From NCBI RefSeq assembly GCF_003334385.1, contig NZ_QOWN01000006.1: a stretch of DNA of 64,000 nucleotides, one strand, 5' to 3'. A program made the translations under genes and the position numbers. Below the pieces are notes generated by a model. It had not been told where the DNA came from and searched no databases. It saw nothing but the letters and a program-made list of their open reading frames with translations. Positions 58,590 through 63,821 of the stretch are shown here, piece by piece. This DNA comes from Escherichia coli (GTDB lineage: Bacteria; Pseudomonadota; Gammaproteobacteria; Enterobacterales; Enterobacteriaceae). How positions within the stretch are numbered: the stretch's first letter is position 1; every line of letters starts with the position of its first letter.

Positions 58590-59948
58590 TTAATTTCTTT
58601 GCGGTAACATAATCCGGAACACATTATGCTTATTGAGATAGTGATACGTAGCACTTCCCCCATGTAATTCGGCAATCGCTTTGACTAAAGAAAGACCAAG
58701 TCCCTGACCTACGGAATGACGCGAATTATCTCCCCGCCAAAATCTACGGAAGAGTTTTTCAGGCTCATGAATTTTCGTTCCAGGACTGGCGACATCAATA
58801 TTAAGATAGCCGTTGGTATCAAGAAAACTGGTTATCTCAATACGCGATTTTTCTGGTGAATATCTAATGGCATTAACAATAAGATTCGATAACATTCGTT
58901 GCAGTAAAATTTTATCCGCAAAGATTTGCTGATTGCACTCGACCTTAAAGCAAATCTCTTTCTCGTCTGAAAGGTATTCAAGATAATCCAACAAATTTTC
59001 GACTTCCTTATTGAGAGAAAGCGAGTCCAGTTTCACCAAAACATTGTTTTTATCTGCCCGGGCAAGAAACAGTATGTTCTCTGTTAACCGCGAAATATTT
59101 TCCAGCTCTTCAATGTTACCGGCAATTGTTTTTTGATATTCAGCGATACTTCTGGTTTGACTGAGCGTAACCTGATTCTGACCCAGTAATGCATTAATGG
59201 GCGTTCTAAGTTCATGAGCGAGATCGTCAGCAAATTGACTTAGGCGTTCAAAATCTTTGACTAAAGCATGATGCATTTTATTCAACGCCTGCCCAAGAGG
59301 TTTTAGTTCTCTCGGTAATGCGCTAACCTCAACAGGCTCCCGGCTATCGTTATAATTCAGCGCTTCCGTTACACCACTCAACTTTTTGATCTCTCGTAAC
59401 CCCGTTCGGATTAACAGCGGACTTAATACTGAGCACAGTATAATGGCGACAATGCAAATTATAATGCTATTGATTTTATACTGTTCAAGCATGTTATGTC
59501 TGGCTGAAGCCAATTTAGCCACAGTAACCGTTAATGATGGCGAAACTTCATCAATATTAATTCGTAAAGCATCTATCTCTGTATCATTAATAATGCTTCT
59601 GTAAATGCCAGCTGCGCTGATTGTCTCACTAGCAGGTATGTTATTTAACATGCCATCACTGACATTTGTCCGGTTAACAATTTTATTGATGCTATCACCA
59701 TGAATGATCAAGATATCCTGACTAACATCCATCATCCGGTTAAAGTACACAGGTAACGTATCTGGATTTACCCCATCAATTAACAACTGCTTGATCTGTG
59801 CTGTCCGGTTAATGAGTGTTGTATCATCGCGCCATTTCAACTCACTTGCCAGGCCATTATAGAGAGTCCAGACAATTCCAGCACCAGCAACAGACAGTAG
59901 CAATATAAAAAGCAAGGTTAAACGGACGGTTATAGACAATCTTTTCAT
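58590..59948 (-). CDS. hprS: Sensor histidine kinase HprS/YedV (452 aa)
   Basis: ORF translation matches YedV; HisKA H-box (ELRTP) and HATPase domain. Confidence 0.95.
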   Translation of the reverse strand: MKRLSITVRLTLLFILLLSVAGAGIVWTLYNGLASELKWRDDTTLINRTAQIKQLLIDGVNPDTLPVYFNRMMDVSQDILIIHGDSINKIVNRTNVSDGMLNNIPASETISAAGIYRSIINDTEIDALRINIDEVSPSLTVTVAKLASARHNMLEQYKINSIIICIVAIILCSVLSPLLIRTGLREIKKLSGVTEALNYNDSREPVEVSALPRELKPLGQALNKMHHALVKDFERLSQFADDLAHELRTPINALLGQNQVTLSQTRSIAEYQKTIAGNIEELENISRLTENILFLARADKNNVLVKLDSLSLNKEVENLLDYLEYLSDEKEICFKVECNQQIFADKILLQRMLSNLIVNAIRYSPEKSRIEITSFLDTNGYLNIDVASPGTKIHEPEKLFRRFWRGDNSRHSVGQGLGLSLVKAIAELHGGSATYHYLNKHNVFRIMLPQRN

Positions 59949-60619
59949 TATTTTTTTACCGCTACGAACGAATATCCCATCCCACGGATTGTGGCAATTA
60001 GCTTTTCAGGAAAAGGATCATCAACTTTTGCGCGGAGCCTGCGAATGGCGACGTCCACCGTATTGGTATCACTATCAAAGTTGATTCCCCAAATTTCACT
60101 CGCAATAACCGTTCTGGGTATAATTTCGCCAGCTCTGGAGGCCAGTAGCCAAAGTAACTGAAACTCCTTGCGCGTCAGTGTAATACTGATATTGTCCCTG
60201 CTCACACTTTGACTAACAGAGTCCATTCTTAAGCCGCTGATTTCTAATGTTGAATTCAAAGCGTGATGTTGCCTTAATTGTGCCCGAACCCTTGCCAGCA
60301 ACTCAGAAAATGAAAAAGGTTTTACCAGATAATCATTTGCCCCACTGTCCAGCCCTCTGACTCTGTCATCGACAGAATCCCTTGCAGTAAGGCAAATAAC
60401 AGGGGTTTGCTTTGCTGTTCTTAACGTTTGTAAGATCTGCCAGCCATCCATACCCGGAAGCATAATATCCAGAATGATCAATGCATAATCATCCTTCAGC
60501 GCAAGATAAAGCCCATCTCTGCCATCAGAAACGGCATCAATGACATAACCCGCTTCGGAAAGCCCCTGCGTTACCCACTCCTGGGTCCTTTGATTATCTT
60601 CAATAAGTAAAATCTTCAT
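59948..60619 (-). CDS. hprR: Response regulator HprR/YedW (223 aa from MKILLIEDN; ORF extends to 60730)
   Basis: OmpR-family receiver plus winged helix; start trimmed to the conserved receiver N-terminus; 1-nt overlap with hprS. Confidence 0.93.
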   Translation of the reverse strand: MKILLIEDNQRTQEWVTQGLSEAGYVIDAVSDGRDGLYLALKDDYALIILDIMLPGMDGWQILQTLRTAKQTPVICLTARDSVDDRVRGLDSGANDYLVKPFSFSELLARVRAQLRQHHALNSTLEISGLRMDSVSQSVSRDNISITLTRKEFQLLWLLASRAGEIIPRTVIASEIWGINFDSDTNTVDVAIRRLRAKVDDPFPEKLIATIRGMGYSFVAVKK

Positions 60620-60751
60620 GAAAATAATATGCCATAAATCATATGTTATAGAAACAGCCTGGTTCATTACAAAATTGTAATGCTGCTGTAAGGTTACCCT
60701 GGACGCTTTTTCGCTATCCTCAAAACTCATTCACATGACAAGGATATAAAC

Positions 60752-61165
60752 ATGTTAAAGCGTTATTTAGTACTCTCCGTAGTAACGGCTGCATTTTCAT
60801 TACCTTCTTTGGTCTATGCTGCACAACAAAACATTCTTAGCGTGCACATTTTGAACCAGCAAACAGGAAAACCCGCTGCCGACGTGACAGTCACTCTTGA
60901 AAAGAAAGCGGACAACGGCTGGTTACAACTTAATACCGCCAAAACAGATAAGGATGGACGAATTAAGGCACTGTGGCCCGAGCAAACTGCAACTACGGGC
61001 GATTACCGTGTCGTATTTAAAACCGGGGACTATTTCAAGAAACAAAATCTTGAAAGTTTCTTCCCTGAGATCCCCGTTGAATTTCATATTAATAAAGTGA
61101 ACGAGCATTATCATGTGCCTTTATTACTTAGCCAATATGGGTATTCAACCTATCGTGGCAGTTAA
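60752..61165 (+). CDS. hiuH: 5-hydroxyisourate hydrolase HiuH/YedX (transthyretin-like periplasmic protein), 137 aa
   Basis: ORF translation matches YedX; C-terminal YRGS motif. Confidence 0.95.
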
Positions 61166-61273
61166 TGCATAAATATGTAAAAGCAGATCTCTGCTACTGT
61201 TAGGGAGGACACTCCCTGACAGATTAACAGTAAACGGCTCTTGCTGGCTAACGACAAAAAAGTGTGATGGCTT

Positions 61274-62278: not shown

Positions 62279-62914
62279 ATGCGTCTGACAGTAAAACAGG
62301 TGACATGGCTGAAAGTTTGCCTGCATCTTGCCGGATTGTTGCCGTTTCTCTGGCTGGTCTGGGCGATCAATCACGGTGGACTGGGTGCCGATCCGGTGAA
62401 AGATATTCAGCATTTTACCGGTCGCACTGCACTGAAATTTTTGCTGGCGACCTTGTTAATCACACCTCTGGCACGCTACGCAAAACAGCCGTTATTGATA
62501 CGCACTCGCCGCCTGTTAGGCTTATGGTGCTTTGCCTGGGCGACACTGCATTTAACCAGTTACGCATTGCTGGAGCTGGGCGTGAATAATCTGGCGTTAT
62601 TAGGCAAGGAGTTAATTACCCGGCCTTATTTAACGTTAGGAATTATCAGCTGGGTTATTTTGCTTGCTTTAGCGTTTACTTCAACCCAGGCGATGCAGCG
62701 AAAACTCGGCAAGCACTGGCAACAGTTGCATAACTTCGTCTATCTTGTCGCGATCCTGGCCCCAATACATTATTTGTGGTCAGTGAAGATTATTTCACCG
62801 CAGCCACTCATCTACGCTGGGCTGGCGGTACTGCTTTTAGCCTTACGGTATAAGAAGTTGCTTTCCCTTTTTAACCGGTTACGCAAGCAGGTTCACAACA
62901 AATTATCTGTATAA
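62279..62914 (+). CDS. msrQ: Heme-binding membrane subunit MsrQ/YedZ (211 aa)
   Basis: ORF translation matches YedZ; start abuts msrP stop. Confidence 0.95.
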
Positions 62915-62947
62915 CTTCATATTGCCGACAAAGTACGCGTTATCCCT

Positions 62948-62981
62948 GCCGGATGCGGCGCGAGCGCCCTATCCGGCCTAC
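62948..62981. repeat. REP element (GCCGGATGCGGCGCGAGCGCCCTATCCGGCCTAC)
   Basis: Canonical REP consensus downstream of msrQ. Confidence 0.8.
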
Positions 62982-63170
62982 GCAGATCACATCAAGTTAT
63001 GTTTCGTTTGTCATCAACCTCAAATCATCGACATAATTTATTATATTTCAATAAGATAGATAAGCACACCTGAGAGAACTATTCTCTTGTCTCCTAAGAG
63101 TTGTTGCATTTTGTTATATGTTACAATATAACATTACACATCATATACATTAACTCTGGAGGAAACTGTT

Positions 63171-63821
63171 TTGGCGATTCGTCTTCATAAACTGGCTGTT
63201 GCTTTAGGTGTCTTTATTGTTAGCGCTCCTGCCTTTTCGCATGGTCATCACTCACACGGCAAACCCTTAACAGAGGTCGAACAAAAAGCTGCTAATGGTG
63301 TTTTTGATGATGCCAATGTACAAAACCGAACGCTCAGTGACTGGGATGGAGTCTGGCAATCCGTTTATCCTTTACTGCAAAGTGGCAAACTTGACCCCAT
63401 CTTTCAGAAGAAAGCGGATGCAGATAAAACCAAAACATTTGCTGAAATTAAAGATTATTATCGCAAAGGTTATGTGACAGACATCGAGATGATTGGCATT
63501 GAGGACGGCATTGTCGAATTCCATAGAAATAATGAAACAACATCCTGTAAATATGATTACGATGGATACAAAATACTCACCTATAAATCAGGCAAGAAAG
63601 GCGTTCGTTACTTATTCGAATGTAAAGATCCTGAAAGCAAAGCCCCTAAATATATACAATTTAGCGATCATATAATTGCACCACGAAAATCATCTCATTT
63701 TCACATTTTTATGGGTAATGATTCCCAACAGTCTTTATTGAATGAAATGGAAAACTGGCCAACGTATTATCCCTATCAGTTGAGTAGCGAAGAAGTGGTC
63801 GAGGAGATGATGTCTCATTGA
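63171..63821 (+). CDS. zinT: Periplasmic zinc/cadmium-binding protein ZinT/YodA (216 aa)
   Basis: ORF translation matches ZinT; His-rich N-terminus after signal peptide (HGHHSHG). Confidence 0.95.

Follow-up and report, generated by a model that had tools for sequence, protein, structure and literature searches.

In this study, we examined the hprSR/hiuH-msrPQ locus and the neighbouring zinT gene of Escherichia coli, which lie at positions 58590-63821 of the window, the whole 64-kb stretch of DNA that was analysed. The open reading frame (ORF) listing of 56500-64000 revealed hprS and hprR on the minus strand, and hiuH, msrP, msrQ, and zinT on the plus strand (Table 1). The genome that matches best is that of strain HH97 (99.4% identity); in its RefSeq annotation the same six genes have the same boundaries in window coordinates, and the b1968-b1973 layout of K-12 MG1655, where hprR is NP_416478.2 with 223 amino acids (aa), matches the window as well. 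A preliminary description made from the sequence alone had listed these six genes as intact and in canonical order, with hprSR divergent from hiuH-msrP-msrQ; the ORFs, RefSeq, and the family models bear out both statements, and its coordinates are exact. Gene order, orientation, gene lengths, and start codons, including the TTG of zinT, are all alike in K-12 MG1655, and the comparison showed about 1-2.5% nucleotide divergence in the coding regions and no structural difference. The six proteins differ from their K-12 counterparts by 1-6 aa each, and none of the genes contains an internal stop codon. HprR, HiuH, MsrP, MsrQ, and ZinT each exceed the curated cut-off of their own NCBIfam equivalog over the full length. 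When the 6-kb region (58000-64000) was searched by megablast, at least 80% of it was present in 5,404 of 5,426 complete E. coli genomes. No known RNA family was detected between 57000 and 64000 with Rfam. The hprR-hiuH spacer is identical to that of K-12 MG1655 at 132 of 132 positions, and the hiuH-msrP spacer (108 nt) is likewise identical base for base. Since the control region is the same in every base, the published K-12 experiments on it apply directly here. We are highly confident that this is the canonical chromosomal E. coli hprRS/hiuH-msrPQ locus with an independent, Zur-regulated zinT beside it, and that HprR is the 223-aa form. The locus is already known, and there is nothing unusual in it.

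The gene products were then compared with curated family models. HprS scored 317.8 bits against the heavy-metal sensor kinase family (cut-off 292.55); NCBIfam holds no HprS-specific equivalog, and the name HprS is taken from the RefSeq annotation together with the identity to K-12 at 446 of 452 residues (six aa differences). The residues reported as signal-sensing in K-12 HprS are Met72, 73, 100, and 153 and Cys165 (bioRxiv 10.1101/2021.09.09.459708), and the protein in the window keeps M72, M73, M100, M153, and C165, as well as the H-box HELRTP at His245. HprR scored 482.3 bits on its own equivalog NF008567 (cut-off 353) and differs from K-12 by one aa. In the 223-aa form, position 51 (within ALIILDIMLPG) is occupied by D, which we take to be the phospho-acceptor of the receiver domain by analogy with the OmpR family. 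The CusSR/cusCFBA system, an E. coli paralogue, is alike in its kinase and regulator families, its divergent layout, and its shared palindromic operator. However, HprR reaches only 253.8 bits on the CusR equivalog, under the cut-off of 420, while it passes the HprR equivalog, and the output genes here serve the repair and detoxification of oxidant damage, whereas cusCFBA is a metal efflux pump. In the divergent operon, HiuH scored 296.9 bits (cut-off 217) over its full length (1-137), MsrP 508.4 bits (cut-off 207), and MsrQ 238.3 bits (cut-off 130). HiuH shows a hydrophobic N-terminus resembling a signal peptide, which we read as ending VYA/AQ, and a C-terminal YRGS; an export signal of this kind distinguishes HiuH from cytoplasmic PucM-type enzymes. 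The MsrP N-terminus carries the twin-arginine motif KRRQVLK. The hprS ATG and the hprR stop codon share 1 nt (TAATG), and the msrQ ATG directly follows the msrP stop codon; this overlap and this abutment fit translational coupling. Shine-Dalgarno sequences precede hiuH (AAGGA at 60740-60744, -5.2 kcal/mol) and msrQ (-7.4 kcal/mol).

Table 1. Genes and control features of the hprSR/hiuH-msrPQ locus and of zinT, in window coordinates.
Feature	Position	Strand	Basis or remark
hprS (yedV), sensor histidine kinase, 452 aa	58590-59948	-	TIGR01386, RefSeq name HprS
hprR (yedW), OmpR-family response regulator, 223 aa	59948-60619	-	preferred start ATG at 60619
37-codon open frame upstream of hprR, judged non-coding	60620-60730	-	hprRS promoter, operator, 5' untranslated region; hiuH promoter on the opposite strand
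predicted sigma-70 promoter of hprRS	60645-60672	-	-35 TTGTAA 60672-60667 (overlaps the box), 16-nt spacer, -10 TATAAC 60650-60645
HprR/CusR box CATTACAAAATTGTAATG	60665-60682		exact match to the published sequence
candidate -10 TATCCT of the HprR-activated hiuH promoter	60715-60720	+	sequence reading
hiuH (yedX), periplasmic transthyretin-like hydroxyisourate hydrolase, 137 aa	60752-61165	+	NF011610
hairpin with 11-bp stem in the hiuH-msrP spacer	61197-61222	+	CUGUUAGGGAG-GACA-CUCCCUGACAG
msrP (yedY), catalytic subunit of periplasmic methionine sulfoxide reductase, 334 aa	61274-62278	+	NF003767
msrQ (yedZ), haem-binding membrane subunit, 211 aa	62279-62914	+	NF003831
REP-like GC-rich hairpin downstream of msrQ	62937-62983	+	GCCGGATGCGGCGCGAGCGCCCTATCCGGC, folds at -24.3 kcal/mol
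Zur box in front of zinT	63119-63138		published motif TRWNAYRWTATAWYRTNWCA, 0 mismatches on both strands
zinT (yodA), periplasmic zinc/cadmium-binding protein, 216 aa, TTG start	63171-63821	+	NF007639

In the spacer between hprR and hiuH, we searched for the operator and the promoters. The sequence CATTACAAAATTGTAATG has been reported from the hiuH-hprR spacer as a box common to HprR and CusR (PMC9302797, Fig. 1A), and CusR recognises the same box as HprR (PMC8249747; PMC9302797). The preliminary description had pointed to 60620-60751 as the interval in which an HprR box should lie, and the exact match is found inside it. This box occurs once in the window, with 0.11 matches expected by chance even at three mismatches, and no second HprR box with up to three mismatches was found anywhere in the 64 kb. 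It stands 87-70 bp before the hiuH ATG, equal to the published distances (bioRxiv 10.1101/2021.09.09.459708; PMC9302797). For the hprRS promoter, the hexamers TTGTAA-16-TATAAC are given for yedWV in a genomic SELEX (gSELEX) table of the RpoD holoenzyme (PMC3946193), and we placed them on the window by reading the sequence. A generic promoter scan omitted this promoter because its -10 hexamer ends in C. From the position of these hexamers, the hprRS transcription start site (TSS) would be expected near 60638. On the opposite strand, the candidate TATCCT, if it is the -10 of hiuH, would place the box centre near -54; the gSELEX table gives other hexamers for hiuH, TAGAAA-15-CAAAAT (PMC3946193).

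The reading frame of hprR is open for 37 codons beyond ATG 60619, up to an ATG at 60730, so that an ORF of 260 aa (59948-60730, minus strand) can be called in place of the 223-aa protein. The preliminary description had noticed this in-frame extension and trimmed it; the extension is indeed there, and the trimmed start is supported by the onset of homology, by the position of the operator and promoter, and by comparison with Escherichia albertii. First, positions 1-223 of NF008567 align to residues 38-260 of the long ORF and leave residues 1-37 unmatched, and alignments to 51 response-regulator sequences of the PDB begin at query residue 37-39, partial chains excepted. The first 37 residues are covered by no homologue, family model, or solved structure. 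RefSeq and MG1655 both annotate hprR as 223 aa (672 bp). Second, the operator and the predicted core promoter of hprRS fall within the extension, the box at about codons 17-22. A transcript from TTGTAA-16-TATAAC would lack ATG 60730, because the hexamers lie about 60-85 nt downstream of that ATG, and the expected TSS would lie about 90 nt downstream of it. Third, the composition of the extension differs from that of the gene. Its GC content is 35.1%, typical of intergenic DNA, while that of the hprR coding sequence is 44.5%. When substitutions between E. coli and E. albertii were counted by codon position, the coding sequence showed 15/4/68 and the extension 3/5/9 plus a gap, a much weaker third-position bias, and all three polymorphic sites of the extension among five other E. 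coli copies are nonsynonymous. These observations favour ATG 60619 as the start of hprR.

The comparison with E. albertii bears on the same question. The E. albertii hprSR/hiuH-msrPQ locus (L004) has like genes in like order, and its coding regions are 83-89% identical to the window. The box is kept at 18 of 18 positions, the -35 and -10 hexamers are invariant, and the stretch from the box to the short ATG is conserved at 39 of 45 positions, its length being 45 nt in both species. In contrast, E. albertii has AAG in place of ATG 60730, carries a frame-shifting 1-bp deletion, and has an in-frame TAG after the box, so that both the long start and its reading frame are lost; the HprR N-terminus MKILLIEDNQ is common to the two species. 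When E. coli genomes were queried with the E. albertii spacer, no intermediate lineages were found among them, and the matches were at 80-90% only. Beyond these two species, a scan of genome collections with the box pattern returned at least 120 loci. Among the matches listed, E. albertii is the sole close orthologue, the others being chance matches or CopR-type boxes in distant taxa. In 16 of the listed loci, which belong to diverse proteobacteria, a CopR/HprR-like gene is preceded by the same box at a distance of 44-132 nt, and the homology of these genes sets in at residue 1 of the short form. The presence of the same box upstream of these 16 distant CopR/HprR-like genes indicates that it is a family-wide upstream operator.

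Several points weigh against the 223-aa assignment and need to be considered here. We found no measured hprR TSS and no N-terminal peptide in the literature. The one genome-wide TSS table found that includes the hprSR-hiuH region, that of Kim 2012 (PMC3415461 supplement), has no start ahead of yedW in the growth conditions that it covers and lists only weak internal and antisense starts in this region; a Cappable-seq supplement has no entries at these coordinates. The hexamers of PMC3946193 were chosen by sequence inside an in-vitro binding peak and are not mapped starts. In addition, neither hprR start has a Shine-Dalgarno sequence (-1.5 vs +0.9 kcal/mol), and the ribosome-binding signal therefore cannot separate the two. 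The long frame is open from its ATG in all six aligned E. coli sequences; this carries little weight, since the copies are at least 97.6% identical here. The evidence from close outgroups comes from one species, E. albertii. Finally, many automated annotations call the long form; in public collections the exact 260-aa and 223-aa sequences each occur on 1,000 contigs or more, and the sources call the 223-aa form HprR.

The open frame, the many long-form calls, and the lack of a Shine-Dalgarno sequence at the short start speak for a rival reading, in which the 260-aa HprR would be the real product or a second one, an E. coli-specific form with a 37-residue N-terminal extension whose transcript begins inside hiuH in antisense. 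However, ATG 60730 is the first codon after a TGA and lies only 22 nt from the hiuH ATG, so that the promoter of the long form would need to be inside hiuH, and 37 stop-free codons at 35% GC would arise by chance in about 7% of cases by a rough estimate. Together with the unmatched residues, the enclosed operator and promoter, and the loss of the frame in E. albertii, this makes the long product extremely unlikely, and we give just as little credence to a minor 260-aa isoform that would be made in E. coli, but not in E. albertii, from such an antisense transcript. If this were true, hprR translation would be tied, through the minor isoform, to transcription that runs through the gene's own operator. 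We return to the 223-aa HprR as the preferred form; the ambiguity between 260 and 223 aa is a known annotation artefact and not a biological puzzle.

Some further observations were made on hprR and its annotation. A Shigella flexneri 'HprR' call of 253 aa represents a third annotated start. The 90%-identity protein cluster that holds the 260-aa HprR has a representative of 452 aa, and its members are mostly HprS; its size is therefore unusable for counting long-form calls. Inside hprR, on the plus strand and thus antisense to the gene, positions 60095-60131 contain a promoter-like TTCACT-18-TATAAT. A plus-strand TSS of Kim et al. 2012 (U00096.2 position 2036359, 10 reads) corresponds to window position 60131, exactly at this site; it lies antisense to the 5' half of hprR and was given there to yedX with a 621-nt leader.

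We then examined the spacer between hiuH and msrP. It has been shown by reverse transcription PCR (RT-PCR) that hiuH, msrP, and msrQ form a single tricistronic transcript (bioRxiv 10.1101/2021.09.09.459708), and the preprint reports that the hiuH and msrP lacZ fusions were induced 20-fold and 70-fold. The spacer (61166-61273) folds at -38.4 kcal/mol with a z of -4.9, and the 11-bp hairpin dominates the fold. E. coli and E. albertii have the same hairpin stem and differ in the loop and the flanks. No U-run follows the hairpin, which therefore does not qualify as an intrinsic terminator; a possible role is that of a processing or stability element by which the levels of hiuH and msrP are uncoupled.

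The preliminary description had counted zinT as a member of one oxidative/metal stress module together with the other five genes, and here it needs revision. If zinT belonged to an HprR-controlled module, it would be expressed by read-through from msrQ or by direct control of HprR. Both genes are on the plus strand, with zinT 256 bp beyond msrQ, this adjacency is kept in K-12 and in strain HH97, and a search of that strand for a canonical intrinsic terminator between the two found none. Against membership, an exact Zur box stands 32 nt upstream of the zinT start, just before the gene's own Shine-Dalgarno sequence (GGAGGA at 63158-63163, -9.3 kcal/mol), which is the strongest ribosome-binding site of the region. 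The motif TRWNAYRWTATAWYRTNWCA was used as quoted in PMC6103462, and the repression of zinT by Zur is about 980-fold in K-12 (PMC4219657). Direct HprR control finds no second HprR box in the window, as described above, and against read-through a stable REP-like hairpin stands between msrQ and zinT. By the REP consensus, we take this hairpin to be REP-like. The published operon consists of hiuH-msrP-msrQ (bioRxiv 10.1101/2021.09.09.459708; 10.64898/2026.06.01.729251), and the conserved E. coli architecture is given as hprS-hprR-hiuH-msrP-msrQ, without zinT (bioRxiv 10.64898/2026.06.01.729251). ZinT itself scored 432.8 bits on its equivalog (cut-off 300), and its His-rich N-terminal HGHHSHG is present. 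We consider membership of zinT in the HprR-controlled module very unlikely; zinT is a separate unit of the Zur regulon that is merely adjacent to hprSR/hiuH-msrPQ.

The term module remains suitable for hprSR/hiuH-msrPQ, but the stress label of the preliminary description was too general. The chief stimuli of HprS are HOCl and reactive chlorine species, with a much weaker response to H2O2, and hprRS itself is induced about 20-fold by HOCl (bioRxiv 10.1101/2021.09.09.459708), so that the main published signal is not generic oxidative or metal stress. Copper acts on the hiuH-msrPQ locus through CusR (PMC9302797), and a 2026 preprint names urate hydroperoxide as a further signal and assigns its degradation to HiuH (bioRxiv 10.64898/2026.06.01.729251). 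The likely mechanism is taken from the published K-12 work, and we infer induction in this strain from the identity of the control region (132/132). HOCl and reactive chlorine species in the periplasm would be sensed by HprS, which would lead to phosphorylation of HprR. Phosphorylated HprR, and the copper-responsive CusR too, would bind the single palindromic box in the 132-bp divergent spacer, and this binding would activate both the tricistronic hiuH-msrP-msrQ and hprRS itself. HiuH would then detoxify a urate-derived oxidant, MsrP would reduce methionine sulfoxide in periplasmic proteins, and MsrQ would supply the electrons. The 37 codons upstream of hprR would correspond to the promoter, operator, and 5' untranslated region of hprRS and to the hiuH promoter on the opposite strand, with a frame that may be open by chance in an AT-rich spacer. 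zinT would be transcribed alone, with Zn-Zur repressing it at its own box.

Outside the six genes, several features of the flanks were observed. Upstream of hchA, an intact ORF of 362 aa at 55951-57039 (plus strand) encodes a porin of the OmpC/OmpF/PhoE family. It scores under all three equivalog cut-offs (416 bits vs 583 for OmpF) and is therefore a distinct paralogue; translation probably begins at the internal MKRKVLAML (residue 11). In HH97, the closest genome, the annotation marks the gene at this position as frameshifted. The interval between the convergent hchA and hprS holds a GC-rich stem at 58518-58556 (plus strand; CGCAGCCACGT ... ACGTGGCTGCG, loop of 9 nt) with TTTTTT after it. This stem probably terminates hchA and may act bidirectionally; the terminator scan passed over it because the loop exceeds 8 nt. 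On the other side of the locus, HH97 carries a tyrosine recombinase/integrase gene about 850 bp after zinT (L001 8170-9001), where K-12 has yodB and tRNA-serU, which suggests an island insertion near the locus in the HH97 lineage. The window ends at 64000, short of the position of the HH97 integrase.

Taken together, the practical value of this locus lies in a caveat on its annotation. The 260-aa calls of automated annotation wrongly present the promoter and the HprR/CusR operator as protein-coding DNA, and this could mislead analyses of the operator and of the HprR N-terminus, while curated annotation (RefSeq, MG1655) already uses the 223-aa start.

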